Below, one piece after another: positions 7,805 through 32,106 of a stretch of 64,000 nucleotides of DNA (its first letter is position 1; every line of letters begins with the position of its first letter). This DNA comes from a virus, in IMG/VR virus record IMGVR_UViG_3300044946_000428, positions 4,777 through 68,776 of that record; one strand, given 5' to 3'. Made by a program: the position numbers and the translations under genes. The notes under the pieces were generated by a model. That model worked only from the letters and a program-made list of their open reading frames with translations. It was not told the origin of the DNA and searched no databases.

Positions 7805-9217
7805 TCAGCCACGCTCTCCGACGTAGCCGGGTCCGACGCAGTACTGGTCGCCGTCCTCGGCGATCCAGCCCTGACTGACCGCAAGGTTGATCGCGTCCTC
7901 GAGGAGTCCGCGGTCCCGATGCGCGATCGCCATCCGGATCCCGTTGTACGTCAGGCCGCCGACACCGGCGTCCGCCACCTTGCGCGCCACGTTGCCCGCA
8001 ACCCGCATCTCGTTCGCCTCGGCACTGCGCTTGGCCTTGTGCTCCTGTACGGCAAGCTGGATCTTCTCCTTGGCCTGCTCATCCTTGGAGGCCTGCGCCT
8101 CGCGCTTGGCACGTGCAACGAGGGAATCGCGCACGAGGCACGAGGACTGCCAGGTCATCTCGGCAAGCTTCCAGTCCATGTCGTCGACCGCAAACCGGCC
8201 TTCAAGCAGCGCGAGCAGCGCCGCCATCTTCGCCATCATGAACCGGCGGTGCGCATCCAAAGGCTCGAGCACCAGGTCACCGTTGCCCAGCATGACGCGC
8301 TCACGCTTGATCAGATCCCGGACCTCCGGAGGGAACTCGACGTCGATGAAGTCCTTCGTGTTCTCGATCAGCGGGTGCAGCTTCAACTGCCCCGGATGGC
8401 GCGGCGCGTCGAACGGGATCGTGGGGTCCTCGGCCCAGGACCAGAAGAACCGCTGCGGCGTGCCGCCCCCGCCGTCGGCGAGCAGCTGCGTGACGGTGGT
8501 CGGCTGGTAGCCGACGACGAGGCCGAGGTTGTAGGTCTCCGGTGCGATGTACCGGTTGCGTTCTTCGGTGGCGTTGGTCTGCCCGAGTCCCTCGCCCATG
8601 GCGGCACTGCGCAGCGCCGTCATCAACGTCGAACCCTGGCGCCCGGCGAGCTGGGTGAGCTGCTCGCCCTCGTCGCAGTAGAAGAACACGTTGTTGCGGA
8701 CCTGCTTGCGCACCTTCGTCATGACCGGCTCGCCGCGCCGGGGACCGTTCTCGTAGACCTGGCAGGTCTCCTCGTCCACGGTCCCCATGAAGACCTCGGC
8801 CATACCCTCGCCGGATCCCAATGGGATGCCGTCGCGGAACTCCGGGTCACTGGCCGGGATCAGCCCGCGCGCCCCGGCCGCGCCGGAGGACTTGCCGGCG
8901 CCGGGATTGCCGACCAGGGCGACGTACAGGTTCATCGACCCTCGGCCGAAGATCCCGGTACGCATCTTGATCCGCCAGTTCAGCAGCCCGGACAGCCGCG
9001 CCATGGTCGTGTAGAACACGACGTCGCCCGAGCGGGCGTCGGCGTGCGCGGCATCCCGGATGTGCCTGAGGGTGTCGCGGGTCGCCCAGAACTCCTCAGG
9101 CAGCAGGCCCGGCCGGTCCTCGGCCTTCGGTGTGCCGTCGATGGGCTCGCTGCTGCGGGGGTCCTGTTCGGACCACGCGTCCTGATCCTCGGGCAGCCCG
9201 TCGTTGGTGATGGTCAC
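7805..9217 (-). CDS. P-loop NTPase, DUF3987/YfjI-like replicative helicase partner of prim-pol
   Basis: Walker A GNPGAGKS; Walker B-like FFYCDEGE; C-terminal wHTH-like region; GTG start overlapping the prim-pol TGA. Confidence 0.75.
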   Translation of the reverse strand: MTITNDGLPEDQDAWSEQDPRSSEPIDGTPKAEDRPGLLPEEFWATRDTLRHIRDAAHADARSGDVVFYTTMARLSGLLNWRIKMRTGIFGRGSMNLYVALVGNPGAGKSSGAAGARGLIPASDPEFRDGIPLGSGEGMAEVFMGTVDEETCQVYENGPRRGEPVMTKVRKQVRNNVFFYCDEGEQLTQLAGRQGSTLMTALRSAAMGEGLGQTNATEERNRYIAPETYNLGLVVGYQPTTVTQLLADGGGGTPQRFFWSWAEDPTIPFDAPRHPGQLKLHPLIENTKDFIDVEFPPEVRDLIKRERVMLGNGDLVLEPLDAHRRFMMAKMAALLALLEGRFAVDDMDWKLAEMTWQSSCLVRDSLVARAKREAQASKDEQAKEKIQLAVQEHKAKRSAEANEMRVAGNVARKVADAGVGGLTYNGIRMAIAHRDRGLLEDAINLAVSQGWIAEDGDQYCVGPGYVGERG

Positions 9218-10188
9218 CGCGATCCTCCGGCCTTGGCGAGGGCGCTGCGCCACGCCGCGTGGAACTCCTGGTCATAGCCGCGCTGGCTGACCGAATTGCG
9301 CGGTCGGCTCGCGCCCGCGTCGAACATCGCGTCGCGGGCGTCGATCTCGCTCACCAGGCCCTCCGCAACCAGGTGGGCAGCTGCGGTCGTCAGCCGGCAC
9401 AGGGCGTCGTGGCCGGTGTGCTCCGGCGCGCCCGCGAGCTCGTCCGCGAACTTGTCGAGCTGCTGATAACCCCAGTCCCGGCCTCGATCGGGCCGCGGCT
9501 CGCGGGGCTTGTGCGGCCGAGGCGGCTCCGGGAAGTGGCCCGTGACCTTCAGGTGGTGCAGTAGCCACTCGGGCGCCGGGCCCGGGTCCATTACGTCGGT
9601 GACGCGCCGGTAGCAGCCGCCCTTGACCGGAGTGCCCGGCGCGGGGATGTAGCCGTTGGACCCGCGGATGTCGACGAGCCAGCCGAACGAGCCGTCGGAA
9701 CTGTTCTTGATCCAGGTTCCGGCGGGGACGCGCCACGTGAGGTGCGCGCCGTCGCTCTTGGTGGACACGTGGAGGCAGTCGGCGGGCCACGGCGCGCTGT
9801 AGCGCTCGAGGATGAGCGCGAAGACGTCGGCGCCCTCGTTGACGCCGTCGATGTCCTTGTAGGCCTCGGGCTTGGGGCGTCGTTCCTTGTTGACGTCGAT
9901 GTCGACCGTGACCAGGTTCGACATGCCGTTGACGATGCCGAGGTTTGCGTCCGGGCGCCGGTCGAGCAGCCCGAGCACGTGGCCGAGGTTTGTGGACCCG
10001 GCCTGCCATCCGTGGCAGAACGCGGGTGGGTGCGGGCAGTCCTTGATGGCGTGCTGGCCGGGCGGGCACTGGCCGCAGTTGGCGAACGGCTTGCGCCGGT
10101 CGTCGATGAGGATCAGCCCGAATCCGAGGCCGATGAACGCCTCGGCGGCGCGGCGCTTACGAGGCACGTCAGTCAGCGTGGTGCTCAC
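9214..10188 (-). CDS. Bifunctional DNA primase/polymerase (Prim-Pol)
   Basis: ANLGI...LVTVDIDV, STKSDGAHL, VDIRGSNGYIPAPGT motifs; N-terminal C..C..H zinc site. Confidence 0.9.
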   Translation of the reverse strand: MSTTLTDVPRKRRAAEAFIGLGFGLILIDDRRKPFANCGQCPPGQHAIKDCPHPPAFCHGWQAGSTNLGHVLGLLDRRPDANLGIVNGMSNLVTVDIDVNKERRPKPEAYKDIDGVNEGADVFALILERYSAPWPADCLHVSTKSDGAHLTWRVPAGTWIKNSSDGSFGWLVDIRGSNGYIPAPGTPVKGGCYRRVTDVMDPGPAPEWLLHHLKVTGHFPEPPRPHKPREPRPDRGRDWGYQQLDKFADELAGAPEHTGHDALCRLTTAAAHLVAEGLVSEIDARDAMFDAGASRPRNSVSQRGYDQEFHAAWRSALAKAGGSR

Positions 10189-10358
10189 GGCATCCTCCTT
10201 GGTCCGCGCGAGAGGTGGGCTAGCTCACCTGGGTGATGGAACTGACGCTGTTCGGGGTACTGCACCAGTGCTGTTCGGCGATACCGTGTTGGTCTAGCAG
10301 GAGCGCGCGACGTTCTTGCAGGTGCAACGGCAGAACTACCTAGAGGAGTCTCAGATCC

Positions 10359-11114
10359 GTGACCGACGACACGCCGCTCTACCAGCAGATCGCCAACGAC
10401 CTTCGAAGAGGCGTCGGCGAGGGGAGATTCGATGCCAATGAAGGCAGGCTCCCCGGCGAGAAGGCTCTGGCCGAGCAATGGAACACGTCCACGGCAACCT
10501 CGAGCAAGGCTTTGAAGCTGCTCGAGCGTGAGGGTGTGATCGAGATCCGCAGGGGCGTCGGTGCTTTCACCCGACGCCGCAAGCCGATCATCCGCGATGC
10601 GAACGGCCGACTGTCCCGCGAGCAGTGGGGCGCGGGTAAGGCGATCTGGCAGTTCGACCTCGGCGACCACTACCCGGTGCCCGAGACTGCGGTCTACCGG
10701 GACGGCGAGGAGAAGGCGCCCAAGGTGCCGGACTTCGTACGAGCCACGCTTCAAGCCGATCGGTACCTGATCCGCGACCGCAGGTACACGGTCGAGGGCT
10801 GGCCGATCCAGGTTGCGACCTCGTTCTTCGATGCGGCAATTGCCGAGGGGACCGAGATCGCAAATCGCGACTCGGGTCCGGGTGGCGTGTACGCACGGCT
10901 CGCCGAGCTCGGGCATGAGCCGGTGGCTTTCCTTGAGCAGGTACGCAGCCGACTTCCGCTCGACGATGAGGCGAAGCGTCTGCGGATCACAACGGACAAG
11001 CCCGTTTCGGAGATCGTTCGCCAGGCGAAGACGGCTGCTGGCCGGGTCGTCGAGGTCAACGTCATGCTGTTGCTGGGCGACGCTTACGTGCTCCAATACG
11101 CCTTCTCCTCCTAA
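10359..11114 (+). CDS. GntR-family regulator with a UTRA domain (KorSA/TraR-like)
   Basis: PLYQQIANDLR....LPGEKALAEQW.TS..T...AL..L..EG.I..RRG.G; C-terminal UTRA-like domain. Confidence 0.92.
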   Translation: MTDDTPLYQQIANDLRRGVGEGRFDANEGRLPGEKALAEQWNTSTATSSKALKLLEREGVIEIRRGVGAFTRRRKPIIRDANGRLSREQWGAGKAIWQFDLGDHYPVPETAVYRDGEEKAPKVPDFVRATLQADRYLIRDRRYTVEGWPIQVATSFFDAAIAEGTEIANRDSGPGGVYARLAELGHEPVAFLEQVRSRLPLDDEAKRLRITTDKPVSEIVRQAKTAAGRVVEVNVMLLLGDAYVLQYAFSS

Positions 11115-11127
11115 CTCGCTCGCTTCC

Positions 11128-11161
11128 AAGCCCCCAACCGAGTCTCGGTTGGGGGCTTTTT
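11128..11161 (+). terminator. Intrinsic terminator after the GntR gene
   Basis: 15-bp stem AAGCCCCCAACCGAG/CTCGGTTGGGGGCTT followed by a T tract. Confidence 0.85.
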
Positions 11162-11180
11162 GATTACATGGACCATCCTA

Positions 11181-11233
11181 GAACCAGCTGGTTCCTCTTG
11201 ACAACCATATGGAGCACGCGCTGTACTAGCTAT
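11181..11233 (+). promoter_or_regulatory. Promoter of the rightward early operon with a palindromic operator; probably leaderless
   Basis: GAACCAGCTGGTTC palindrome 11181-11194; TTGACA 11198-11203; TGTACT 18 nt later, ending 7 nt before ATG 11234; no SD. Confidence 0.55.
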
Positions 11234-11485
11234 ATGACGACAGCGACCGACACCGCGGCGCCGGCACAGACCGACGAGTTCCTCACCGTCGGCGAGGTCG
11301 CCAAGCTGCTCCGGACCACCCCGATGACCATCTACACCGAGATCCACGAAGGGCGACTCGACGCGATCCGCGTCGGGCGCCGGACCTACCGGATCCCCGT
11401 GGAGTCCTACAACGCGTACAAGGAGGCGCAGCGCACCACGCCCCGCGCCGAGACCGGCCAGCTCGTCCCGGCCACCGCCGCGTAA
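11234..11485 (+). CDS. xis: Excisionase/MerR-like HTH DNA-binding protein
   Basis: EFLTVGEVAKLLR..PMTIY..I.EG.L.AIRVGRRTYRIP (HTH_17 excisionase consensus). Confidence 0.85.
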   Translation: MTTATDTAAPAQTDEFLTVGEVAKLLRTTPMTIYTEIHEGRLDAIRVGRRTYRIPVESYNAYKEAQRTTPRAETGQLVPATAA

Positions 11486-11557
11486 CCACAAGCCGCCGGG
11501 CCCCGGCCGCGACCGCACAACGGCCGGGGCCCGGCAACCAGCCAGCACCACCAGCAA

Positions 11558-11630
11558 GCCCTCGCTCCGGGTCGGGGGGCGCCGCGAACCTCCTCCTCGC
11601 GGCTCGGGTTCGAATCCCGAAGAGGGCACC
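11558..11630 (+). ncRNA. tRNA-like element, copy 1
   Basis: GCCCTC/GAGGGC acceptor-like stem plus ACC; T-arm TCGGG-TTCGAAT-CCCGA; middle hairpin GCCGCGA/TCGCGGC with a CCTCC loop. Confidence 0.65.
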
Positions 11631-11661
11631 TTGATCAGTCGGCTCGACGAAGGAGGAAGTC

Positions 11662-11907
11662 ATGCAGGTCTGGATCCTGATGGAAGGCGAGCTGTGCGAG
11701 GGCGGCACCGTCGAGGGCGTTTTCGCTTCCTGCGAGCTGGGCCACGGCGCGTTCGCGGAGCTCGCCATGAAGCTGTGCGGCTGGTCCGGGATCCGGGAGG
11801 CCGACGTGCGTGAGAACGGCGGCCTGTATTTGGAGGGCGGTCAAGTCTGGATCGAGCTGCGGCCGTTCGACGTGGTCGAGCAGTTGGCGATCGCGCCGGC
11901 CGCCTAG
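11662..11907 (+). CDS. Hypothetical protein (81 aa)
   Basis: GAAGGAGG SD; clean ORF. Confidence 0.75.
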   Translation: MQVWILMEGELCEGGTVEGVFASCELGHGAFAELAMKLCGWSGIREADVRENGGLYLEGGQVWIELRPFDVVEQLAIAPAA

Positions 11908-11980
11908 CGCTACCAGCACCATCCCGGGTTCCGGCGGCCATCTCCCCGGCAACCGGCACCCGGGCGCACAGCACCAGCAA

Positions 11981-12055
11981 GCCCTCGCTCCGGGTCGGGG
12001 AGCGCCGCGAACCTCCACTTCGCGGACGTGGGTTCAACTCCCACAGAGGGCACCA
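11981..12055 (+). ncRNA. tRNA-like element, copy 2 (ends ACCA)
   Basis: GCCCTC/GAGGGC plus ACCA; T-arm GTGGG-TTCAACT-CCCAC; CCGCGAA-CCTCCAC-TTCGCGG hairpin; compensatory changes relative to copy 1. Confidence 0.7.
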
Positions 12056-12085
12056 CGACCAGTCACTTCAACGAAGGAGGCAGCA

Positions 12086-12703
12086 ATGCAGTTCGAGCGC
12101 CGCACAATCACCCAGACCATCAAAGTCCCGACGAACACGGGCCGCACGGTCGACGAGCACACGAAGGCGTACCTGAACCGGTCGATGGACGTCATGGACT
12201 CCATGGGCATCGGCATGTGGCCGGCGATCGTGTCCGCGTCACAGTTGGGCGCCGACGACGAACTCCAGGAGATCCTCGGCGACGCCATGGTCGGCGACGA
12301 GTACGAGGACGGCGACGGCTACAGCCGCAACGGTCTGCGGCGCGTTGTGGACGACACGGACATCCCCGAGAAGCTGACCGCGTGGCGGGACGCCGCGGTG
12401 AAGGCGGCGCTTGAGGGCGCCGGACAGGCTGCGCGCCGGTCGGCCTTCACCTCAAGCACGCCGCTAGTCGCAACCGACGAGTGGGGCCGGCCGCGCTGCC
12501 AGCAGGTCGGCGTGTACGCGGACGTGGACGAGTTCTTCCAGTGCGCGATGGTCGCGGACCACGACGGCGACTGCGACCCGCTGCCGATCCAGCCGTCCGC
12601 CGATGAGGCCGAGCGGCTCCTCGCCGACGCGTACGTCACGATCCCGGTCGCGGATGCATCCGGCCTGGCCGCGCAGATGCAGCAGCCGAACAACGAGAAC
12701 TGA
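12086..12703 (+). CDS. Hypothetical protein (205 aa) with a C-terminal C...C..H..C zinc-like motif
   Basis: GAAGGAGG SD; MQFERRTITQ...; PRC...FFQCAMVADHDGDC. Confidence 0.75.
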   Translation: MQFERRTITQTIKVPTNTGRTVDEHTKAYLNRSMDVMDSMGIGMWPAIVSASQLGADDELQEILGDAMVGDEYEDGDGYSRNGLRRVVDDTDIPEKLTAWRDAAVKAALEGAGQAARRSAFTSSTPLVATDEWGRPRCQQVGVYADVDEFFQCAMVADHDGDCDPLPIQPSADEAERLLADAYVTIPVADASGLAAQMQQPNNEN

Positions 12704-12783
12704 CAGCAAGAAAGCCCGGCCGCTGTTGCACCCAGCGGCCGGGCGGTGTCCAGAGCCCCAGCAAGCAGCGAGAGGAACCAGAC

Positions 12784-13212
12784 ATGCAGCAGTCTACGGC
12801 CCGGCGCCGAGGCCATCTGGCGCTCGCCCCGGAACCCGGCGCCGTCGCCGGGATCCCGGTCCCCGGCAACCTGCCGGACGACCCGACCTACGCCTACCGG
12901 CTCGGCCGGATCGCGACGCTCACCGAGACGCTCGACGAGCAGACCCGGGCCGTGGCGAACTTCGACCGGTTCGAGTCGATGTCCTTCGCCGAGATCAGCA
13001 CGCTGATCGAAGTCCTGGGTTGGTTCGCGGACGCCAAGCGCCCGAGCCTGCACCTCGTGGACGAGCAGGGCGACATCGCCCCGATCGTGCAGGCCGCGGT
13101 CTCCGAGTTCCGCCCGGTCGACGAGCCGACCCGCCTGTTCGCCCAGTCCCGGGCCCGGCTGACCACGTTCGTGGAGAGCCACGTCGCGGCCGGTATCGGA
13201 GGGGTGTCGTGA
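12784..13212 (+). CDS. Hypothetical protein (142 aa)
   Basis: GAGAGGA SD; GC3-rich. Confidence 0.7.
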   Translation: MQQSTARRRGHLALAPEPGAVAGIPVPGNLPDDPTYAYRLGRIATLTETLDEQTRAVANFDRFESMSFAEISTLIEVLGWFADAKRPSLHLVDEQGDIAPIVQAAVSEFRPVDEPTRLFAQSRARLTTFVESHVAAGIGGVS

Positions 13213-13382
13213 AGACCGTCCTGCACATCGAACTCGACCTCGCCGGCGACCGTGCCGATGCCGCCGCCCGCGTGGACGCCCTGATCGCGGCGCTGACCGC
13301 GACCGCCCCGGGCCTCGGCGCCCGCATCGAGGCCACGCACGTCGACCGGCTCCGGCCGGTCACCGCGGGAGGCGCCCGATGA
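13209..13382 (+). CDS. Hypothetical protein (57 aa)
   Basis: GTGA coupling; VKTVLHIELDL... Confidence 0.6.
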   Translation: MKTVLHIELDLAGDRADAAARVDALIAALTATAPGLGARIEATHVDRLRPVTAGGAR

Positions 13383-13573
13383 ACGCCGCCGTCCTCGACC
13401 CGCGTGCCGCGACCGCGGCCGCCATCGCCCGGTCCCAGATGCCGTGGGACGCGGCCCTCGACGGCACCAGCCCGCACCCGCGGGCCGTCAAGGACATCGC
13501 CCGCAGCCGGTTCAACCTCGTCCTGACCGACGACGAGACCCGCGCGGCGATCAAGGCGGCGATGAGCGAATGA
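13379..13573 (+). CDS. Hypothetical protein (64 aa)
   Basis: ATGA coupling; GGGAGG SD. Confidence 0.65.
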   Translation: MNAAVLDPRAATAAAIARSQMPWDAALDGTSPHPRAVKDIARSRFNLVLTDDETRAAIKAAMSE

Positions 13574-13848
13574 GCCACCTGAGCCAGGCCGCGATCCTCA
13601 ACGAGATCCTCAACGGGAAGACCGACCGGGCCACCCTCGCCGCGCTCGTGCGCGAGTACGCGCGCCTCGAGGCCCAGCCCGTCACCGCCGGGACCCGGGT
13701 CCGCACCCCGTGGGGCATCGGCACCGTCCAGTACCCCGACGCCGTCCCGGTCCGGTTCGACGCCGCCGTGGCGCAGCCGCCCGTGAAAATCGGGCTCGTG
13801 CCGGTCGGGCAGCTCGAGTTCATCGAGAACGGGCGGGTCACGCCATGA
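13570..13848 (+). CDS. Hypothetical protein (92 aa) with an SH3-like C-terminus
   Basis: ATGA coupling; AGTRVRTPWGIGTV motif. Confidence 0.6.
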   Translation: MSHLSQAAILNEILNGKTDRATLAALVREYARLEAQPVTAGTRVRTPWGIGTVQYPDAVPVRFDAAVAQPPVKIGLVPVGQLEFIENGRVTP

Positions 13849-14252
13849 CCGTCATGCTCGACGCCCCGGCCGTCCAGGCCGCCCCGCCCGCGGCGCTCGT
13901 GTTCGACCCGGCCACCCCCGCCTCGGTCCCGGCCGCCCGGCACTGGACCCGCCAGGTCCTCGGCCTCGGTCCCGGCAGCGACATCGAGATCCTCGTGTCC
14001 GAACTCGTCGGCAACGCCGTCGTGCACGGCGGGCCGCGCGTCGAGCTCGACCTGCGCTACACGGACGGCGGCATCGAGATCACCGTCACCGACAGCGGGA
14101 CCCGCACCGCCCCGCGCGACCACCGGCCCGACGGCGAGCACGGACTCGGACTGATCATCGCCCGCGCGCTCGCCGCGCACCTCACCGTCGAGCACGTCCC
14201 CGACGGCCGCGCCGCCCGCGCGGTCCTGCATACGCCCGGAGGTGCGCGGTGA
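13845..14252 (+). CDS. Stand-alone GHKL/HATPase_c protein (RsbW-like anti-sigma factor/kinase)
   Basis: SVPAARHW...ILVSELVGNAVVHG...I.VTDSG...GEHGLGL.I..AL. Confidence 0.85.
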   Translation: MTVMLDAPAVQAAPPAALVFDPATPASVPAARHWTRQVLGLGPGSDIEILVSELVGNAVVHGGPRVELDLRYTDGGIEITVTDSGTRTAPRDHRPDGEHGLGLIIARALAAHLTVEHVPDGRAARAVLHTPGGAR

Positions 14253-14449
14253 AGACCCCGATCGTGGGCGTGGTCAACGGCACCCCCGTGCACGGACCCG
14301 ACGCCCAGACCCTCACCGAGTGGGCGCTCCGGGCGCACCTCGAGACGTGCAGCGCGTGTCGGCACGAGGCGTGCCCGATTGGGATGCACCTCGAGGCCGC
14401 GAGCCGCCCTGATCGCAGCTGGATTCCCGACCCCAGGACAGGAGACTGA
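14249..14449 (+). CDS. Small protein with an H..C..C....C..G..L zinc motif
   Basis: HLETCSACRHEACPIG; GTGA coupling. Confidence 0.6.
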   Translation: MKTPIVGVVNGTPVHGPDAQTLTEWALRAHLETCSACRHEACPIGMHLEAASRPDRSWIPDPRTGD

Positions 14450-14451
14450 CC

Positions 14452-14820
14452 ATGACCACCACCACGCCCAACGCCAGCGTCGAGGACATCCTCTACGCGC
14501 TGCAGTACGCCGACAACGAGGGCACCGCCCTCGACGACTGGACCTACAAGACCATCGCCGAGGACCGCGCCAAGCGACTCGAGGCCGCCGCAACTCTGAT
14601 CACACTCGACCGGGCCGCGCACAACCGCGTCCAGGACGGCTACCGCGGCGGCGACGCCGTGTTCGAACTCACCGACCACATCATCGAGTTCGACAAGGAG
14701 CACGGCACCACCCGCGGACCGGTACCGGCCGACGACCCGCACTGGAACGTCCCCGGCGGCACGGAGGCGTACGTCCTGCAGGAGTGGGACGCGGCCAACA
14801 CGGCGACGGCAGCGGCCTGA
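14452..14820 (+). CDS. Hypothetical protein (122 aa)
   Basis: AGGAGA SD; acidic, GC3-rich. Confidence 0.7.
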   Translation: MTTTTPNASVEDILYALQYADNEGTALDDWTYKTIAEDRAKRLEAAATLITLDRAAHNRVQDGYRGGDAVFELTDHIIEFDKEHGTTRGPVPADDPHWNVPGGTEAYVLQEWDAANTATAAA

Positions 14821-14822
14821 TC

Positions 14823-14996
14823 ATGAGCCTGCTGCCCGGGCTCAAGCTCGACTGGCGCTCAGGGCGCGGCGCCGACCTTGACGTCACCGAACGCGTCGGA
14901 CCGCTGCGCGCCTGGAAGGCGATCCCGCTCACCGGCCGCACCAAGACCGGCAAGCGCCGCAAGCCCCGCAAGGGCGCCAGCATCCGGATCTTCTGA
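14823..14996 (+). CDS. Small basic protein (57 aa)
   Basis: MSLLPGLKLDWR...KGASIRIF, 2 nt after the previous stop. Confidence 0.5.
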   Translation: MSLLPGLKLDWRSGRGADLDVTERVGPLRAWKAIPLTGRTKTGKRRKPRKGASIRIF

Positions 14997-15065
14997 CCGA
15001 CCAGGTGCCGAAGCGCACCCGAGAGGGCAAGCCACGGCGCCGCAGACCCGAGAGAGGACCGCGCA

Positions 15066-15416
15066 ATGTCAAAGAGCGACAAGACCTACGACGTCACCGT
15101 CTACCGCACCGACGGCACCACCACCCGCGAGAACGTCGCCAACGACGAGGCCCGCGAACTTCGGGACGCCGGTGGGCGCGGCCAACCGGCCGGGCCCGAC
15201 ACGAAGGAGAACACGGCCATGGGCATTCTCAAGACCGCCAAGTGGGCGCTGAGCACGAAGGACGAGCGGCGCTTGAGCGAGGTGCGCGAGCATAAGGGCC
15301 GCAAGCCCGCGGGCGGGCGGCGCGACAGGGACGTCGACTACACGAACGGGTTCATCGTCAGCGGCAAGGGCCAGGGCACCTCTTACGTCCTCGCCACGCG
15401 CCGCAACGGACGCTGA
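15066..15416 (+). CDS. Fused ORF: MSKSDK... module reading through a repeat remnant into a 65-aa MGILKT... gene (own start at 15219)
   Basis: Internal GCGGCCAACCGGCC repeat and AAGGAGA SD before ATG 15219. Confidence 0.6.
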   Translation: MSKSDKTYDVTVYRTDGTTTRENVANDEARELRDAGGRGQPAGPDTKENTAMGILKTAKWALSTKDERRLSEVREHKGRKPAGGRRDRDVDYTNGFIVSGKGQGTSYVLATRRNGR

Positions 15417-15517
15417 CCGCCCGGCGGGCCACGATCGCCGGCGGCCCTGAGCTCTCCCCAGGACCGCCGGTCCGCGCGGCCAACCGGCCGGGACCACAAC
15501 TGCACGGAGGGAATCCC

Positions 15518-15703
15518 ATGGGCCTTTTCAGCCGGAACGCCGAGGTCAGCCAGGCGCGCGCCGAGTACCGGGAGGCGAACGCCGCGCAGCAGGAGTACGC
15601 GCGCACCAGCGGCAACCGCGACGAGAACGACGCGACGTACCTCCAGCTCAACGACCGCACGAACGAGACGCTGCACGCACTCAAGGACGCCAAGAAGCGC
15701 TGA
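15518..15703 (+). CDS. Microprotein (61 aa), cassette in the repeat array
   Basis: GGAGGGA SD; MGLFSRN...DAKKR. Confidence 0.75.
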   Translation: MGLFSRNAEVSQARAEYREANAAQQEYARTSGNRDENDATYLQLNDRTNETLHALKDAKKR

Positions 15704-15806
15704 CCGGGCGGGCCGCGCCTGCCGACAGCCCCCGGCTCAGGGGCCTGCCGGTGGGAGCGGCCAACCGGCCACAGCAAAACCTCAGCTCGCAAAGGAGATC
15801 AGCACC

Positions 15807-15974
15807 ATGGCGAAGAAGGAATGGACCGACGCGGAACGCTGGGAGATCGTCAAGGAGTCCATGGACCACTCCCGCTATTACGAGTCCATCGGAGACCGCA
15901 AGAACCGCGACCTGTACAGCGAGAGCGCGAATCGAGTGCTCGACTCCATGGAGAAGGGCCGCGGGAGCAAGTAG
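15807..15974 (+). CDS. Microprotein (55 aa), cassette in the repeat array
   Basis: AAAGGAGA SD; MAKKEWTDAERWEIVKE...GRGSK, translated manually (below the track cutoff). Confidence 0.75.
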   Translation: MAKKEWTDAERWEIVKESMDHSRYYESIGDRKNRDLYSESANRVLDSMEKGRGSK

Positions 15975-16068
15975 CCCGACGGGTCACGCCTGCCGACAGT
16001 CCACAGCTCAGGGGCCTGTCGGCTCGCGCGGCCAACCGGCCGAGACCAATCCGAGAAAGGTAAACACC

Positions 16069-16242
16069 ATGGGCAAGGTCGAGATCAACGGGGACGTCAC
16101 CGGATCGAACGTCCAGATCATCACCGCCAACGGCACCGTCGCCATCAACGGCCGCGAGATCCCCGACGGCACCTATCAGTCCGGGGACTCGACCGTCACG
16201 GTCGACACCGGCCGCGACGCCGGCAACGGCAAGCGTCGCTGA
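16069..16242 (+). CDS. Microprotein (57 aa, beta-rich), cassette in the repeat array
   Basis: GAAAGG SD; MGKVEINGDVTG...GKRR. Confidence 0.7.
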   Translation: MGKVEINGDVTGSNVQIITANGTVAINGREIPDGTYQSGDSTVTVDTGRDAGNGKRR

Positions 16243-16340
16243 CCGCCCGCGGTCCCGGCCGGCCGACATGTCCGGACGGGAGCCGCGGGCGAGAAAGCCC
16301 GACGCCAACCACGACCAACCACCGCCGAAGGAGGCGAGCC

Positions 16341-16595
16341 ATGGCCAGCAACTACGATCGGGCGCTCGAGGAGGACGACGGCGACGGCATTGCCTACGCA
16401 TTAGTCCTCGCAATGAACCTATCAATGTTCGTCGCGGCCACCGCCGGCGATCTGGCCACACCTTTCGTGCCGCACCGCTGGCTGTGGATAGCAGACCTCG
16501 CTGCCGCGGCCCCCGTGCTGGCCTTGGCCGCACGGCGCAGGTGGCAACTGCTCGACGCATGCCTCGAACTCGTGTGGCACGTCAGGAGGCGGTGA
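16341..16595 (+). CDS. Small membrane protein (2 predicted TM)
   Basis: GAAGGAGG SD; two hydrophobic segments. Confidence 0.6.
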   Translation: MASNYDRALEEDDGDGIAYALVLAMNLSMFVAATAGDLATPFVPHRWLWIADLAAAAPVLALAARRRWQLLDACLELVWHVRRR

Positions 16596-16597
16596 TG

Positions 16598-16945
16598 TCA
16601 GCCCTTCAGCTTGCCGCGCGGGCCCTTCGCGATCGCCTGCGCACTCGCCCGAGTGATCCCGAACCGCTTCGCCACCACCCCGTGCGACCACCGCTCCGGG
16701 TCCCCCTCGGCCTGCGCCTGTGCACGCAGGCGATCCAGCGCGAGATGACGCACCATCGAGAGCGCCGGGATCGCGTCCAACATCAACCGCACCAGCGAAT
16801 GTGTCTTATCGAGACGCTCGCAGTCATCCGCGATCGCCTCGGCATGCCGCTTCAAAGCTCGCACGAACTCCGCGCGCTCCCCCTCATCGGCGCGGGAGAC
16901 GGCGAGTAGCGCCTCCGCGGCGCGCTCAATCTCCTCACGCTCCAC
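16598..16945 (-). CDS. Putative regulator with a C-terminal HTH, divergent from the transfer operon
   Basis: VEREEIERAAE...WSHGVVAKRFGITRASAQAI (HTH-like). Confidence 0.6.
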   Translation of the reverse strand: MEREEIERAAEALLAVSRADEGERAEFVRALKRHAEAIADDCERLDKTHSLVRLMLDAIPALSMVRHLALDRLRAQAQAEGDPERWSHGVVAKRFGITRASAQAIAKGPRGKLKG

Positions 16946-17043
16946 ATCCGGATCATATCCACCCCCGAAAGACGTATGACGGGTTATACACTGAACCCTG
17001 ATATGGCACCAGGACACGACACGGGAAAGGGAGCACACCGACA

Positions 17044-17964
17044 ATGCCCGGCCGGGAGAACACGCCCACCACACCGGAACTCGACGTTCCGGCCGGCGCC
17101 GTGCGCGAACTCAGCACAGGCGCCACCCTCGCCGTCCTCTTCGCCGAAGCCATGTCATCCGTGCGGCTGTTCGGACTCGGCGAGCGCGTCGGGTTCGCCT
17201 GGTACCTCGCCTGGCTCCTGCCGGGCGCGCTCGACGTCTACGCCCTGACGATGCTCCGCTTCTCCTCCCGCATCCCAGACGGCCACCGCCTGCGCCACAA
17301 GGCCATGCGCGAGGCGATTCTCGCGCTCGCCATCACCGTCGGGTGCAACGCCCTCTACGAGGCCGTCACCGCGTTCGCCCGTCAACTGCCCGTCTGGGCA
17401 CCGGGCGCGCTCTTCGTCCTCGTCTCCGCGCTCGCCCCGTTCGTCGCCGGACGGATCATCCACTTCCACGCGGGCATCGGACGCTCCACCCCCGCGAGCG
17501 CCAGGACGCCCGAGACCGCGAGCGGTAGCGACGAGCGCCAGGGCGCTGCCGAAGAGCGCGAGCACCGCGAGCCGGAAGCGCTCGTGGCCGAGAAGCGGCC
17601 GAGCGCTCCCGCCGCCCCGCAAGCGCTCGTGGTCGAGCGCAAGCCGATCGCGAGCACGGTGCGCGAGCGCGCCCTGCGCACCCCGGCCGCGAGCGTTACC
17701 GAGATCGGCGCCGCGGGCGGCCTGAGCCGCGAGCAGTGGGGCGAGCGTGGCGCCCCCGTCTACCGCGAACTCATGGACCGCGACGGCACCGGCCCCTCCG
17801 CCCCCAAGCTCCTCGACGCCCTCGTCACCCGGGGGCTGGCCCAGTCCGTCTCCCCGGCCCGCGCCCGCGTCATCCGCAAGGCGGCGGAAGACCACCTCGG
17901 CCTCACCGGCGACCCCGACGACGGCTCGGCAGGAGACGAACCCGACGCGGACGCCGTGGCCTGA
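17044..17964 (+). CDS. DUF2637/SpdB-like conjugal-spread membrane protein
   Basis: Four N-terminal TM segments (AWLLPGALDVYAL...NALY...SALAP) plus low-complexity linker and C-terminal helical domain. Confidence 0.7.
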   Translation: MPGRENTPTTPELDVPAGAVRELSTGATLAVLFAEAMSSVRLFGLGERVGFAWYLAWLLPGALDVYALTMLRFSSRIPDGHRLRHKAMREAILALAITVGCNALYEAVTAFARQLPVWAPGALFVLVSALAPFVAGRIIHFHAGIGRSTPASARTPETASGSDERQGAAEEREHREPEALVAEKRPSAPAAPQALVVERKPIASTVRERALRTPAASVTEIGAAGGLSREQWGERGAPVYRELMDRDGTGPSAPKLLDALVTRGLAQSVSPARARVIRKAAEDHLGLTGDPDDGSAGDEPDADAVA

Positions 17965-18088
17965 TCCGTGAACTTCTCCGTGAACTTCACGTCAACCAGC
18001 ACCATCCGCAGCGCCGACCAGCGCAAACGGACACCAGGCCCCGAACCGTGAAAACCGAAACAGTGAAAACCGACTCCCGGAGACTCCC

Positions 18089-18664
18089 GTGACCCTCACC
18101 GCCACCGCATCCCCGCCGCTGCACGACGCGGCCCTGACCGCCACCCAGGCCCACGTGTCGCTGCTCGGCGCCACGGCCCTGTGCCTGATCTTCGCGTTCT
18201 TCCTGCGCCGCCGCGCCGCCGGCATCACCTCCTCGATCGAGCGCCGCGGCCTCGTGCGCCGCTCCAACGGCGCCGTCAAGACCGTGCGCCACAGCCGCAC
18301 TGTCCTGGAGTGGGCCGCGTTCCTGCTGTTCGCCGCCGCCGGGGTGTGCGCCTCCGGCACGTTCGTCGGTTCCCTCGTGCTCTGGTTCGCCCGCCAGGTC
18401 CAGCACCTGTTCGACCTGCTGCCGGTCAAGGGGCAGCTCGGCGTCAACGCCGGCCTGCTGATCGTCGGGCTGTTCTTCCTGCACAAGGGCCTGCACCTGC
18501 TCGGCGACGTCCTCGAGGGCAAGGCGCACCAGGGCGGCGCGGACTGGCTCGCGTTCCTCGGCCCGATGGTCTTCACCCTCGTGCCCGGCTATTTCGGCGA
18601 GGGCGCCGCCTGGGTGTACTCGGGCATGGCCACGCACATCGTCCCGCTCGTCGAGCACCTGTGA
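18089..18664 (+). CDS. Multi-pass membrane protein, Spd-like
   Basis: 4-5 hydrophobic helices; lies in the TraB operon. Confidence 0.75.
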   Translation: MTLTATASPPLHDAALTATQAHVSLLGATALCLIFAFFLRRRAAGITSSIERRGLVRRSNGAVKTVRHSRTVLEWAAFLLFAAAGVCASGTFVGSLVLWFARQVQHLFDLLPVKGQLGVNAGLLIVGLFFLHKGLHLLGDVLEGKAHQGGADWLAFLGPMVFTLVPGYFGEGAAWVYSGMATHIVPLVEHL

Positions 18665-18674
18665 GGGCCGGGCG

Positions 18675-19874
18675 ATGACCGACCTCTTCGATGCGATCTT
18701 CGCGTACTACCTGATGATGCTCGGCGCGGGAGCGGTCGCCGGGGTGCGCTCGTCGCTGCGCTCGGCGACGCCCGCAGGCGCCCCTGCGCTCGCCGGCGCG
18801 AGCGACGGCGCCCCCGACCCCGCGAGCGGCGCGCCCGGCGCGGGGCGCTCGCCCGCGCCTGCCGCGAGCGCTACCCGTGCGGCGCTCGGCGCCCGCTTGT
18901 ACGCGGCGGGACAGCGAGCGGCGCGAGCGGCCGTAAGCGCGGGCCGGCATCCGCGGACGGCGTCGATCGCCGGGTGGGCGAGCGGCGCCCGCTTCTACCG
19001 GGGCTCGCGCCGCGGCATGCGCGTCGTGACGGCCCGCGTGATCGCGCGCCGCGTCCTGGCGCCGCAGGCGCCTGCCGCGCCCATGCAGCCGCAGCCTGCG
19101 GGGTCCGACCCCGCCGCGCCCGGTTCCGCCGCGCCCGTTCCGCCGGCCGGGGCGCCCGGCCCCGGCCCGACGCCGCCCCAGGCTCCCGGACCCACCCCGA
19201 ACGCGCCGCCCCCGCCGGGCCCCCCGAGCGGGGACGACCTGCTCTACATCTGGCAGGGCGTCTTCGAAAATCCCGACCCGGCGCCCGCCGCACCCGCAAG
19301 GCCCGTCCTGTTTCTCGTCCCGCAGCTGAAGGAGTACCCGAGCATGAGCGAAATCCACGACTACGAATCCGCGCAGTCATTCACCGGGGAGGCGTCCGCG
19401 ACCGCCGCCATGGAAGCCGAAGACGCCGTATCCGCCGCGGAATCCACCGCCGCCGCCGCGGAATTCTCCAGCCAGACCGCCGCGCGGGTCGACGTGGAAA
19501 TCCAGACCATCGAGGCCGGCATCGCCACGATGACGGTTCTCGGCGTCGATGAGAACAGCCTCGCCGCGTATCACCAGTTCCTCGAGGGCGGCCTCGCCTA
19601 CCGGGAGTTGGCCGCCACGTTCGCGGCCGGACTCGCCGACCTCACGGGCCTGGCCGCGGCCATGTCCGCCGCAGCCGTCGCCTACCACGAGCTCGGCGCC
19701 AACGCCCTGGAGACGATCACGGCGGAGCAGGGCCTGCACGACGAGGCCGCGAAGGCCACCGGCCACGGCGGCGCCGACGGCTCGTTCTTCGGCGTCGCGT
19801 CCACCACCGGCATCGCCGCGCCCGCGCCCGCCCCGGCACTCGCCGCCGCGGCCCCCGCGCCGCCCGCGAACTGA
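18675..19874 (+). CDS. Plasmid/AICE transfer-associated protein (TraA/Spd-like); internal start at 19344
   Basis: Pro/Ala linker then AAGGAG-N8-ATG; helical C-terminal domain ending ..EQGLHDEAAK..G.ADGSFF; directly upstream of traB. Confidence 0.6.
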   Translation: MTDLFDAIFAYYLMMLGAGAVAGVRSSLRSATPAGAPALAGASDGAPDPASGAPGAGRSPAPAASATRAALGARLYAAGQRAARAAVSAGRHPRTASIAGWASGARFYRGSRRGMRVVTARVIARRVLAPQAPAAPMQPQPAGSDPAAPGSAAPVPPAGAPGPGPTPPQAPGPTPNAPPPPGPPSGDDLLYIWQGVFENPDPAPAAPARPVLFLVPQLKEYPSMSEIHDYESAQSFTGEASATAAMEAEDAVSAAESTAAAAEFSSQTAARVDVEIQTIEAGIATMTVLGVDENSLAAYHQFLEGGLAYRELAATFAAGLADLTGLAAAMSAAAVAYHELGANALETITAEQGLHDEAAKATGHGGADGSFFGVASTTGIAAPAPAPALAAAAPAPPAN

Positions 19875-19908
19875 CCGGCGACCCGCACCTTTGAAGAAAG
19901 GAACGACG

Positions 19909-21957
19909 ATGCCCGACCCCGACGGCTACCGGCCGCCCGGCACCCCGCCGCCCCCAAGCCGCCTGCGCACGCAGGTGAGCGCGGACGTGCGCGGCGGCCT
20001 CGACGCCGTCGGGCTCAAGGCGTGGAACCTGGCCAAGAAGGGCGCGGCCGGCGCGGCCCGCCACCCCGCCGAGTTCGCCCCCCTGCTCGGCGGCGCCCTG
20101 CTCGAGGCCGCATGCATCGCGCAGGCGGACGTGCCCGACGCGTGGATGTTCATCTGGTCCGCCGTGATCCTCGCCGGATTCCTGCTCTACCGGATCCCGC
20201 GTTCCCGCAAGGCCCGCGCCCGCGCCGCGTCCCGGCTGCGCCGCGCCTACTACACGGCCGCGTGCGCCGCCGCCGTGATCTGCCTTGCGATCGCGGGCAT
20301 CGCCGGACCCGCGAGCGCCCTCGCGATTCAGGCCTCGGGCTCCGCGACCGCCGCCGCGACCGGCACCTGGTGGGCGCGGCACGCAAGGCGCCGGCTGCGC
20401 GCACGCAAGGGCCACGCCCCGGCGCCTGCGGAGCCCGAGGCCCCCGCCGATCCGTACGCCGCGGCCCGCGCGGAGATCACCGAGTGGTTCACCAGCCGCT
20501 ACACCCACCCCCGGGGCCCGCTCGCCGGAGGCCGCCTGCTCGAGGCCACCGCGAACGACCTGTTCTGCCGCCTGCACGTGCAGGTCGACGGCGACACCCA
20601 CTCCTTCGGCAACATCCTCGCGCTCGCCGACCGCATGGTCGCCTCCCGCGGCACCTCCCTGTTCAACATCCAGATCGAGCCCACCCTCGACCAGCGCCGC
20701 GACCAGGGCATCATCACGATTTTCCACCGGAACCCGCTGCCCGAGCAGGTCCCGTTCCCCGGGCCCACCATCGACACCGCCACCGGCTGCGCGACCGTCG
20801 GGCGCTGCGCCGACCTGAGCCCGGCCCTGATCCGGTTCTGGGAACCGGGATCCGGCGCATGGCACGAACTCGTCTCCGGCGCGTCGGGTACCGGCAAATC
20901 CCGGTACCTCGACCAGGCGCTGATCAACGAGCGGCACGCCCTCGACTCCGACGGCCGGCACCTGATCGTCTCGTGGATCTGCGACCCGCAGATGGGCCAG
21001 TCCCTCCCGGACTGGCAGGACAAGGTCGACCGGTTCGCCCGCACCCCCGCCGAGTGCCTCGCGCTGCTCGAGGACGCGCTCGCCGAGATGTTCGCGCGCA
21101 ACGACAAACTCTCGAAGATCCAGTGGACCGACCGCAAGGGCCGCATCCGCACCGGCGTCGACCACTTCACCCCCACCGCCGAGATGCCGCTGCTGTCGGT
21201 CACCCTCGAAGAGGCGCCGATGCTGCTGGGCGCTGACCGCCGCTTCAAAGTCATCGTCAAGCGGATCCTGTCGATGGGCCGCAAGTGCGGCGTCCGGCTG
21301 CGCCTGGTCACCCAGGTCCCCTCGATCGCGGAGCTCGGCAACGACTTCGCGATCCGCCCGCTGCTCGCCTCCATGAGCGTCGTGTGCCTGCGCACCACCG
21401 AGCCGATCACCGGCACCGCGATCCCCGGCCTGCCCGGCGACCCCAAAAACATCGAGGAGCGCTTCCCCGACGGCTCGCGCACCGTCGGGCTCGGCTACAT
21501 CCTCGGCGCGGTCAAGCCCGCGAAGATGCGCACCTTCACCCTCGACGAACTCGTCGTCTACGACTGGGCGTCCGCCGGCACCACCGCGCACCTGACCCCG
21601 CTCGCCCATGTACCGGCCGCGCCCGATCCGGCCGCGCAGGCCGGCGACGCCAGCCCCGTTCCGTCCGCAGCCACGAGCGCGGGGTTCGAGGCCGCCGCGC
21701 CCGCGCAGTACGCCGAAGCGCTCGGCGCCCGCCGGGCCCGCGACGCGATCTGCGGGTACGTCAACGCGCAGGACCGGCCGGTCACCTCCGGGCAGATCGT
21801 GCGCGAACTCGGCCTGGCGAACTCGGCCGTATCCCAGGCCATCAAGCGCGAACTCGTCTCGAAGGCCCCGCGCCTCGCGAAGATCTCCCACGGCCTCTAC
21901 GCCGCCCCCGGCCGCGACGCCGGGTTCTGGGGCGACCGCGCCCAGACCGCCGCCTAG
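19909..21957 (+). CDS. traB: FtsK/SpoIIIE-family DNA translocase (Streptomyces-type TraB)
   Basis: N-terminal TM helices; Walker A GASGTGKS (20878-20901); Walker B VTLEEA; GRKCGVRLRLVTQ; C-terminal wHTH (SGQIVRELGLANSAVSQAI...HGLY). Confidence 0.88.
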   Translation: MPDPDGYRPPGTPPPPSRLRTQVSADVRGGLDAVGLKAWNLAKKGAAGAARHPAEFAPLLGGALLEAACIAQADVPDAWMFIWSAVILAGFLLYRIPRSRKARARAASRLRRAYYTAACAAAVICLAIAGIAGPASALAIQASGSATAAATGTWWARHARRRLRARKGHAPAPAEPEAPADPYAAARAEITEWFTSRYTHPRGPLAGGRLLEATANDLFCRLHVQVDGDTHSFGNILALADRMVASRGTSLFNIQIEPTLDQRRDQGIITIFHRNPLPEQVPFPGPTIDTATGCATVGRCADLSPALIRFWEPGSGAWHELVSGASGTGKSRYLDQALINERHALDSDGRHLIVSWICDPQMGQSLPDWQDKVDRFARTPAECLALLEDALAEMFARNDKLSKIQWTDRKGRIRTGVDHFTPTAEMPLLSVTLEEAPMLLGADRRFKVIVKRILSMGRKCGVRLRLVTQVPSIAELGNDFAIRPLLASMSVVCLRTTEPITGTAIPGLPGDPKNIEERFPDGSRTVGLGYILGAVKPAKMRTFTLDELVVYDWASAGTTAHLTPLAHVPAAPDPAAQAGDASPVPSAATSAGFEAAAPAQYAEALGARRARDAICGYVNAQDRPVTSGQIVRELGLANSAVSQAIKRELVSKAPRLAKISHGLYAAPGRDAGFWGDRAQTAA

Positions 21958-31526: not shown

Positions 31527-31575
31527 AAGCCAGATAGGCGAGAACCGCAGGCAATAGGCGAGAACCGGGGGTGCC

Positions 31576-32106
31576 ATGCCGGCCTCGAAGGGCAAGCAGG
31601 ACGAAGTCGCCGAGCGCCGCGAGAAAGTCCTCGCCCGACGCGCCATCGGAGTACCGCCCGCCGTCATCGCCGCCGAACTCGGCATCAGCGAACAGACCGT
31701 CTACGACGACGTGCACCGCATGCTCAAAGCCCGGCGCGAAACCCTCAACCGCGACAAGGACCTCCTCGTCGTCCTCGAAGCCGAGGAACTCGACGCGATC
31801 AAGCGCGCCGCCTGGGAAGCCGCCTCCACCGTGCACCTGCACGTCTCAGCCTCCGGCCGCGTCAGCACCCACCCCGAGACCGGCGAGCCCCTGCGCGACT
31901 TCGCGCCCACCGTCCAAGCCCTCGGCGTACTCCTGCGCACCCAGGACCGGCGCACCAAACTCCTCGGCCTCGACAGCGCCCAGAAACTCGAGATGCGCGC
32001 CGAGGTGGTCACCCTCGATGCCATCGACGCTGCTATCGCCGGGCTCCGTCAGCAGATCGACGCGCTCCCTGCACCCGCTCGAACCGGAATACCGGGCGAG
32101 GCGTGA
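31576..32106 (+). CDS. terS: Terminase small subunit
   Basis: N-terminal HTH (IAAELGISEQTVYDD) and RTKLLGLD motif, directly before terL. Confidence 0.8.
   Translation: MPASKGKQDEVAERREKVLARRAIGVPPAVIAAELGISEQTVYDDVHRMLKARRETLNRDKDLLVVLEAEELDAIKRAAWEAASTVHLHVSASGRVSTHPETGEPLRDFAPTVQALGVLLRTQDRRTKLLGLDSAQKLEMRAEVVTLDAIDAAIAGLRQQIDALPAPARTGIPGEA

Follow-up and report, generated by a model that had tools for sequence, protein, structure and literature searches.

A rightward array of very small genes, separated by a conserved structured repeat, was analysed in a 64,000-nucleotide (nt) stretch of viral DNA, hereafter the window, which corresponds to bases 4777–68776 of the 111-kb provirus record IMGVR_UViG_3300044946_000428 of the IMG/VR database and was assembled from a soil metagenome. 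The whole array block lies at 15041–16300 on the plus strand (boundaries within about 10 nt) and contains four microgenes of the same orientation at 15219–15416 (65 amino acids, aa), 15518–15703 (61 aa), 15807–15974 (55 aa) and 16069–16242 (57 aa). A 14-mer, GCGGCCAACCGGCC, is present there in 4 exact copies (15178, 15476, 15757 and 16028), all on the plus strand and within 900 bp, and no copy was found elsewhere in the 111-kb provirus record. An earlier interpretation of the same letters without database searches, referred to below as the sequence-only reading, had already described this repeat as invariant, and it is.

Copies 2–4 of the 14-mer sit in spacers of about 100 nt, each of which folds as a long imperfect hairpin. 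The repeated unit is about 80 nt long and consists of a 5′ box, CCGG.CGGG(C/T)C.CG, pairing with the 14-mer GCGGCCAACCGGCC, and of the sequence enclosed by them, with 21–26 pairs altogether. The lower stem, in which 5′ CCGG, GG.CC and CG face the 3′ 14-mer with small conserved internal loops between them, is conserved, and the upper (inner) stem is variable and covarying. A covariance model (R1) built from 11 units recovers the three full units of the window at 59–81 bits. These are U1 (15413–15495, plus strand, 14-mer at 15476–15489, 74.1 bits), whose hairpin begins at the stop codon, U2 (15696–15776, plus strand, 14-mer at 15757–15770, 59.3 bits) and U3 (15968–16047, plus strand, 14-mer at 16028–16041, 81.1 bits). 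The first copy of the 14-mer belongs to U0 (15161–15197, plus strand), a 3′ half-unit only, made up of the 3′ arm of the upper stem and the 14-mer, which lies within coding sequence, is 83% identical to U1 and is scored by the model at 17.7 bits. The covarying stem proposed earlier as the separator of the open reading frames (ORFs) therefore exists as a part of the longer hairpin, with only its 3′ half at the first copy, and the GCTC noted in its loop proved not to be conserved across the family of units described below.

Between each unit and the Shine–Dalgarno sequence (SD) and ATG of the next gene there is a C/A-rich leader of about 27–40 nt; in the window the distance from the end of the 14-mer to the next ATG is 27–36 nt, and the SDs differ between units. 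The window units are spaced 271–298 nt apart, a distance set by ORF length, and iterons or parS sites were rejected because the spacing tracks the ORFs in this way. REP elements were likewise rejected, as no further copies were found in the 111-kb record. As for the suggestion that the repeat delimits the array, three full units do stand between ORFs, and the last ORF is followed by a different element, a strong hairpin at 16244–16291 (plus strand, −39 to −46 kcal/mol) with neither the 14-mer nor a T run, which closes the array.

The four microgenes exist as ORFs, with a G+C content at third codon positions of 0.89–0.95 in their own frames (0.95 for ORF 15518) and an SD for each; that of ORF 15219, whose product has an isoelectric point of 10.9, is GAAGGAG. 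Their mutual unrelatedness, separate SDs and basic C-termini (NGR, KKR, GSK and KRR), listed in the sequence-only reading, were all found, BLASTP and BLASTN revealing no relationship between any of the four. ORFs 15219, 15518 and 15807 are orphans, ORF 15518 finding only itself among the 5.8 billion proteins of a word-indexed database, and ORF 16069 shows a weak likeness to a 58-aa ORF located between two units in the related contig L126 (E 0.001–0.017). No PHROG or Pfam family and no usable Atlas match was obtained for the microproteins; matches with E 0.015–0.044 and a sub-cut-off match to Fervidolysin_SD2 were treated as noise. The earlier proposal of host-takeover or anti-defence peptides gained no support from these searches, which yielded no informative homologue.

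The conserved unit begins before the stop codon (..CGCTGACCG..), so that the repeat itself supplies some of the codons of the basic C-terminus. Several unrelated upstream ORFs share the repeat-encoded end ..(A)AG CGC TGA, and this explains the basic C-termini noticed earlier. A further open frame of 116 aa (15066–15416, plus strand) runs in frame through U0 into the ATG at 15219. Its residues 1–34 are homologous to a complete 55-aa ORF in contig L214 (E 3e-9), and the homology ends at residue 34, exactly where U0 begins. By this comparison, the 116-aa frame is a truncated microgene fused via the half-unit to the 65-aa ORF, and U0 is probably a deletion scar, with one end of the deletion inside a unit, because the homology to L214 stops at its start.

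Search for the same unit outside this phage was carried out with the 14-mer plus the preceding arm, true units being selected by the 5′ box. Two further viral records of IMG/VR and some seven contigs from soil metagenomes were found to carry full units (L058/L261, L247, L145, L152, L181, L186, L214 and L237), in an identical layout, namely stop codon, 5′ box, variable hairpin, 14-mer, C/A-rich leader, SD and ATG. The covariance model added second units in L181, L186 and L237 and diverged units in the syntenic relatives L126 and L252; several carriers have one unit only. In one of the viral records, G001 (L261 and L264), a second unit and a weaker third one make up a further microgene array, whose ORFs are 56 and 27 aa long, and the arrays in L261 and L214 likewise close with a simple strong hairpin. 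The bare 14-mer, used alone, gave almost only chance matches, the extended pattern gave 119 matches in metagenomes, mostly chance ones inside genes, two-copy scans for the 14-mer in genome and metagenome collections gave no match, and single-protein locus searches for related loci found nothing. BLASTN with single units detected no unit in cultured phages and one chance-level match only in plasmids. With Rfam no match was obtained in the array at E up to 1, nor any gathering-score match in L126, L261 and L214, and a ribozyme or riboswitch of known type was rejected on this ground.

The position of the unit relative to genes was scored at 20 sites, comprising 19 full or diverged units and the half-unit U0. 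The upstream stop codon lies −2 to +9 nt from the unit start at 17 of the 17 scorable sites, an SD and a start codon follow 20–34 nt past the end of the model at 19 of 20 sites, unit and flanking genes are co-oriented at all 20, and the downstream ORFs have 27–65 codons in 12 of 19 cases. By these comparisons, the repeat is one member of a family of structured intercistronic elements of about 80 nt, which occupy the variable early arm in a group of temperate actinobacterial phages, all uncultured. In our opinion, the anatomy of the unit and its membership of the family are solid.

The same soil sample contains a 151-nt contig of depth 2 with another unit of the family, which has a different upper stem and different flanks and matches the window at 15707–15728 and 16016–16042; it points to further carriers in the same community. 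In L126 (2841–4601), a unit is followed by an SD without an ORF and then by the gene of a 520-aa RRXRR+HNH protein (Pfam E 8e-67), a pair of domains which we take to be that of IscB-like nucleases. The gene looks like a mobile gene inserted directly after the unit, replacing a cassette.

The fold of the unit is supported by covariation. RNAalifold applied to 11 units yielded 21 pairs, 4 of them compensatory. In 14 units, standard pairs fill 93.2% of the pair cells, compared with 86.6% after shuffling, counted on an alignment that was fitted to the model and leans toward structure; 7 pairs change on both sides, a number reached in 0 of 500 shuffles, and sliding the partner by 1–3 columns lowers the pairing to 21–43%. 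Changes in the otherwise conserved lower stem are also two-sided. In L181, CCGG/CCGG is replaced with CTGA/TCAG and GGCC/GGCC with GCCC/GGGC, the loop residues being kept, and L126 and L237 have a unit subtype with a different pair of boxes. These two-sided changes indicate that the 14-mer is conserved as one strand of a stem, and the covariation argues that selection acts on the folded single strand and speaks against a promoter or operator in duplex DNA. The structural covariation anticipated in the sequence-only reading is thus borne out by the seven two-sided pairs and by the compensatory pairs of RNAalifold.

Double-stranded DNA is nevertheless what a phage regulator or an FtsK/SpoIIIE-like translocase would bind if the units were its sites, in the latter case oriented loading sites of the clt/TRS kind. 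The copies of the box, which is asymmetric, all point the same way and lie together about 3.5 kb upstream of the FtsK-like gene, and other carriers have DUF2637 and FtsK_SpoIIIE genes beside the small-gene region. However, the box covaries with its 5′ partner, which means selection for pairing and not for a fixed duplex sequence, several carriers have a single unit, the spacing is dictated by the ORFs, and the comparison with the TRS of Streptomyces plasmids gave a poor match. We find this explanation extremely improbable.

Actinobacterial terminators often lack a U tract, and GC-rich hairpins standing directly after stop codons could be plain terminators without a T run, conserved by common descent only. 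Such an origin would hardly account for units that are 71–91% identical between phages, when the flanking 150 nt are only 52–66% identical, which is the background level, nor for internal-loop residues that are kept while the stems covary. The arrays, moreover, end in a different and simpler hairpin, suggesting different jobs for the two kinds of structure. It is therefore quite unlikely that the units are terminators of this plain kind. A canonical intrinsic terminator was ruled out, as the array hairpins have no T run: a scan of 12000–19000 showed no hairpin-plus-T-run terminator in the array, where GG/C/A-rich sequence comes after the hairpins.

The closest known arrangement is that of the promoter-early stem-loop (PeSL) cassettes of T4-type phages (Arbiol et al. 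2010, PMC2839356; Comeau et al. 2014, PMC4122927). Like the units considered here, PeSLs are repeated intergenic motifs of about 100 nt with a stem-loop, each filling the gap between the stop of one gene and the SD and ATG of the next; they are found in a hyperplastic region whose genes are small orphans, where indels and replacements between relatives are bounded by the motif and crossovers occur inside it. Recombination between PeSL motifs gives rise to excised mini-circles. PeSLs differ in having a consensus sigma-70 early promoter, and none was found in the units: the scan of 12000–19000 gave 0 sigma-70-like sites, with no TANNNT between the 14-mer and the SD. The conserved parts of the units are, by contrast, the two covarying strands of the lower stem, and the phage is temperate, with high-GC actinobacterial hosts.

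It is conceivable that the units are true PeSLs all the same, that is, composites in which the hairpin stops transcription and the 14-mer region restarts it for each microgene, acting as a promoter for an alternative sigma factor of the host or for an unknown factor of the phage. The order of stop, hairpin, box, some 27–40 nt, SD and ATG equals that of PeSLs (PMC2839356), U0 retains the 14-mer without a full hairpin before ORF 15219, and anti-sigma-like HATPase_c_2 and zf-HC2 proteins are encoded just upstream. A similar box, CCGGCAACC(A/G)GC, also precedes two tRNA-like genes by 22–26 nt, where no translation signal is needed. Against this, there is no −35/−10 pair of the sigma-70 type in 12000–19000 and no TANNNT downstream of the box, the 3′ box co-changes with its 5′ partner in diverged units, which is stem-like and not promoter-like behaviour, the early genes that were scanned include none for a sigma factor or an RNA polymerase, and the boxes on the tRNA side, being in duplicated segments, amount to one observation. 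We regard the composite as rather unlikely.

The two segments in question contain a tRNA-like element of 64 nt (11564–11627), with a sub-threshold Rfam match and not called by ARAGORN, and a tRNA-Gly(TCC) at 11983–12055. The sequence CCGGCAACC(A/G)GC occurs at 11531 and at 11946, so its presence before both elements, mentioned in the earlier reading, is real, and it is possibly akin to the 14-mer. Both sites are in paralogous segments (11486–12090) and hence are not independent. The order at each segment is a gene stop, a hairpin, CCGGCAACC(A/G)GC, the tRNA-like sequence and then the next SD and ATG within about 30 nt, and tRNA-type processing may act as a second cistron separator in this early operon.

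Conserved intergenic repeats of actinobacteriophages form another group for comparison. The SAS and ESAS repeats of Cluster K mycobacteriophages and related repeats in Microbacterium phages of clusters EC, EF, EG and EI have been described, their function being not known (PMC3203893, PMC7302621). As with the units, these are asymmetric conserved repeats that follow the direction of transcription in short intergenic gaps and accompany genes of different families; ESAS forms an imperfect inverted repeat ahead of the start, and the EC motif, which is placed 21–30 bp upstream of start codons, is unit-like in that respect. The SAS itself is a 13-bp motif at the ribosome-binding site, 3–8 bp from the start, whereas the box studied here is some 27–40 nt upstream and the SDs are individual. 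SAS/ESAS and the EC motif occur in 10–19 copies genome-wide, and the units in 3–4 copies gathered within a single inserted block. The units are not similar in sequence to any of these repeats, for which neither a pairing with a 5′ box at the preceding stop nor covariation has been described.

The array is a variable block. Relatives were reached via the FtsK-like protein and a leftward gene (16598–17074, minus strand) that comes after the small genes. In one of them, L125, the homologue (70% identical) of the 57-aa gene found at 14823–14996, the left neighbour of the array, directly adjoins the homologue (94% identical) of the leftward gene, and the single junction in L125 aligns with 14994–15040 of the window on the left and with 16300–16343 on the right. 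It follows that, compared with L125, the window has an insertion of 1.26 kb which is exactly the array; the left boundary of the block is not formed by a unit. The five array ORFs have no homologue in nine relatives, which carry other small genes at that place. The sequence-only reading had named a fixed gene order in relatives and a repeat without covariation as findings that would speak against it, and both are contradicted: cassette content differs between the relatives compared, with no fixed order, and covariation is present. Within the contigs of the single DNA run, no cassette-loss variant of the array was detected; two reported "joints" turned out to be short low-depth contigs derived from different sequence, one being a further member of the family.

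The units themselves are mosaic. U1–U3 are mutually only 63–73% alike, and their closest counterparts are elsewhere, U1 being 88% identical to the unit of L247, U3 77% to that of L181 and U2 77% to that of L186, so that the array is not a recent tandem duplication. Tandem duplication was rejected also because the ORFs are unrelated. A three-way alignment showed that L247 and L186 share the end of the upstream ORF and the 5′ box and then diverge, that L186 and L237 have the upper stem and the 3′ box in common behind unrelated upstream ORFs, and that L237 and L247 share the downstream leader. This pattern of mosaicism implies crossovers at the conserved strands of the lower stem, and we consider cassette-like plasticity to be supported.

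As single-stranded DNA or as cruciforms, the units might serve as substrates of a site-specific or structure-specific recombinase that captures and excises microgene cassettes in the manner of an integron. Integron attC arrays are indeed similar in several respects, consisting of small, promoterless, co-oriented cassettes, each with an imperfect palindrome whose structure is kept over its sequence. In the window, too, each of the co-oriented orphan cassettes has an imperfect palindrome behind it, conserved at the ends and variable in the middle, which folds equally well in both strands; subtypes of the unit are common to otherwise unrelated contexts, crossovers fall at the conserved ends, and unrelated ORFs have the common repeat-encoded end ..CGC TGA. 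However, there is no IntI, attI or R″/R′ core, and integrase types vary among the carriers. No integron integrase was found by the array, the flanks of which are occupied by HATPase_c_2, zf-HC2, small ORFs and a DUF2637-like gene, and no recombinase of another kind adjoins it: the sole integrase of the window, a tyrosine integrase at 61077–62489 with a generic Phage_integrase match, is 45 kb off, and L214 carries a recombinase of the serine type. Inspection of the aligned units revealed neither of the attC core sites, RYYYAAC and GTTRRRY; the units end in CCGG.. and ..CCGGCC, with no GTT at the 3′ end. The first ORF bearing the 14-mer is preceded by 36 nt of unit and not by a short hybrid site. 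Homologous recombination at conserved strands of 15–25 nt would explain the mosaics without a dedicated enzyme, and the half-unit scar together with the mosaic units fits homologous exchange, unlike an integron. A recombinase substrate thus seems very unlikely, and the description of the array as integron-like or shuffled by recombination holds in its second part, given the mosaics of units and flanks, and fails in its first, for want of attC cores and an adjoining integrase of the integron type.

An equally doubtful variant of this idea is that the unit is the recombination site of an unrecognised, IntI-free cassette-capture system, by which hybrids between phages and actinomycete integrative conjugative elements would move microgene cassettes, each composed of a unit and an ORF, between phages. 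It is suggested by the fact that each unit is closer to a unit of another phage and that unrelated ORFs share repeat-encoded end codons. If true, this would be a functional analogue of integrons in actinobacterial phages.

The explanation that we favour, giving it about an even chance, is that the units are intercistronic RNA hairpins with a processing, stabilising or attenuating role, whose conserved arms are at the same time recombination joints. The array would be transcribed as a part of the polycistronic rightward early operon, since the left edge of the block leaves no space for a promoter and its interior yielded none. Each hairpin, with RNA as its active form, would separate neighbouring cistrons as an RNase III-type processing site, a 3′ stabiliser or a leaky attenuator, and every microgene would in this way obtain its own mRNA end and its own unstructured C/A-rich leader. 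The units would let transcription pass, and the different terminal hairpin would be the terminator that closes the block; the fact that the arrays end in such a different, simple hairpin fits this division between read-through units and a terminator at the end. At the level of DNA, the near-identical strands of the lower stem, with 15–25 nt of identity, would be joints at which microgene cassettes are added, deleted and exchanged, presumably by homologous rather than site-specific recombination.

The early genes of phage T7 provide a model of such RNA punctuation. Their RNase III sites are long imperfect hairpins with internal loops, mutually alike, between the cistrons of one transcript; once these are cut, the upstream mRNA keeps a protective hairpin and the downstream mRNA a short leader. 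The units share this geometry, having at least about two turns of imperfect duplex (21–26 pairs), and cleavage here would be an analogy only; there is no sequence similarity to the T7 sites, and the host RNase III is actinobacterial.

Several observations weigh against the punctuation hairpin, in addition to the structural lean of the alignment on which pairs were counted. Both strands of the unit fold about equally well. G–U pairs (8) are not commoner than A–C mismatches (7), and with such equal counts a sense RNA and single-stranded DNA of either strand are not told apart. The 88% identity of U1 to the L247 unit includes the loops, so that unit subtypes are conserved above the need of a plain hairpin, and this excess could reflect specific recognition by a protein, or mobility. 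All members of the family come from metagenomes or records of uncultured viruses, and none from a cultured phage or plasmid. As regards transcripts, no RNA run is listed with this DNA, the sole run being a soil DNA metagenome.

The family is absent from Rfam, and intergenic repeats of actinobacteriophages, such as SAS/ESAS and the Microbacterium motifs, have been catalogued for more than a decade without a mechanism. A fold supported by covariation, a defined lower stem, conserved internal loops and a fixed position make the present family directly testable. If the favoured explanation is right, it would be a high-GC, temperate-phage counterpart of the PeSL idea, in which regulatory punctuation doubles as a joint for the exchange of orphan microgenes. 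This bears on the ways in which phages gain and express small early proteins, often involved in host takeover or counter-defence. The covariance model can be used for finding microgene arrays in metagenomes and for flagging very small genes missed by gene callers.

The source of the window is a temperate tailed prophage, actinobacterial and from soil, with a record G+C of about 70%. Its late genes include those of the large terminase (31571–33733), a portal–Nudix fusion (33746–37096), the tail tube (46449–47675), the tape measure (48534–51794) and the endolysin (59459–60712). The terminase is at most 58% identical to that of any cultured phage, and neither BLASTN of the array region nor tBLASTN of the FtsK-like protein gave a match in cultured phages. 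The rightward early arm begins near the gene of a GntR/UTRA regulator (10359–11114), which is opposite the Prim-Pol and DUF3987 genes, and it continues with an HTH_17 protein gene, the tRNA-like element and tRNA-Gly and, closer to the array, with the genes of the anti-sigma-kinase-like HATPase_c_2 protein (13710–14252) and the zf-HC2 protein (14249–14449). Beyond the array are the genes of the DUF2637-like membrane protein (17044–17964) and the FtsK/SpoIIIE-like protein (19549–21957). The set formed in the early arm (9214–21957) by the GntR/UTRA regulator, the Prim-Pol replicase, the DUF2637-like membrane protein and the FtsK/SpoIIIE-like translocase, present also in L125, L237 and L191, is kept in every unit carrier long enough to judge, and we take it to resemble that of actinomycete integrative conjugative elements.

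Some minor observations concern the surroundings of the array. The RsbW-like HATPase_c_2 and zf-HC2 proteins (13710–14449), together with STAS-domain proteins in relatives, make up a partner-switching (anti-sigma/anti-anti-sigma) set in phages; the corresponding loci are L126:1830–2177, L127:1611–2432 and L251:3714–4097. A search with a neighbouring 122-aa protein returned 7 matches. The leftward gene has no Pfam or PHROG family, its homologues are 111–120 aa long, and translation probably begins downstream of the GTG at 17074. Its protein is 94% identical to that of L125, and the neighbouring proteins are 58–70% identical, which marks a sharp mosaic boundary beside the array.

In L125 (799–989), 13–15-mers of the GACGGACTGTCCGTC type form four repeats about 60 nt apart, in or beside a 327-aa gene that holds the position of the Prim-Pol gene of the window. 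They look like the iteron array of a replication origin. A ribosome-binding context, ..GCCGAAGGAGGCGAGC..ATG, is kept before different genes in the window (16341–16595), L125 (5887–5920), L237, L247 and L261, and what comes after it in L125 is only a 10-codon remnant of a gene that encodes a 97-aa membrane protein in L247 and L261.

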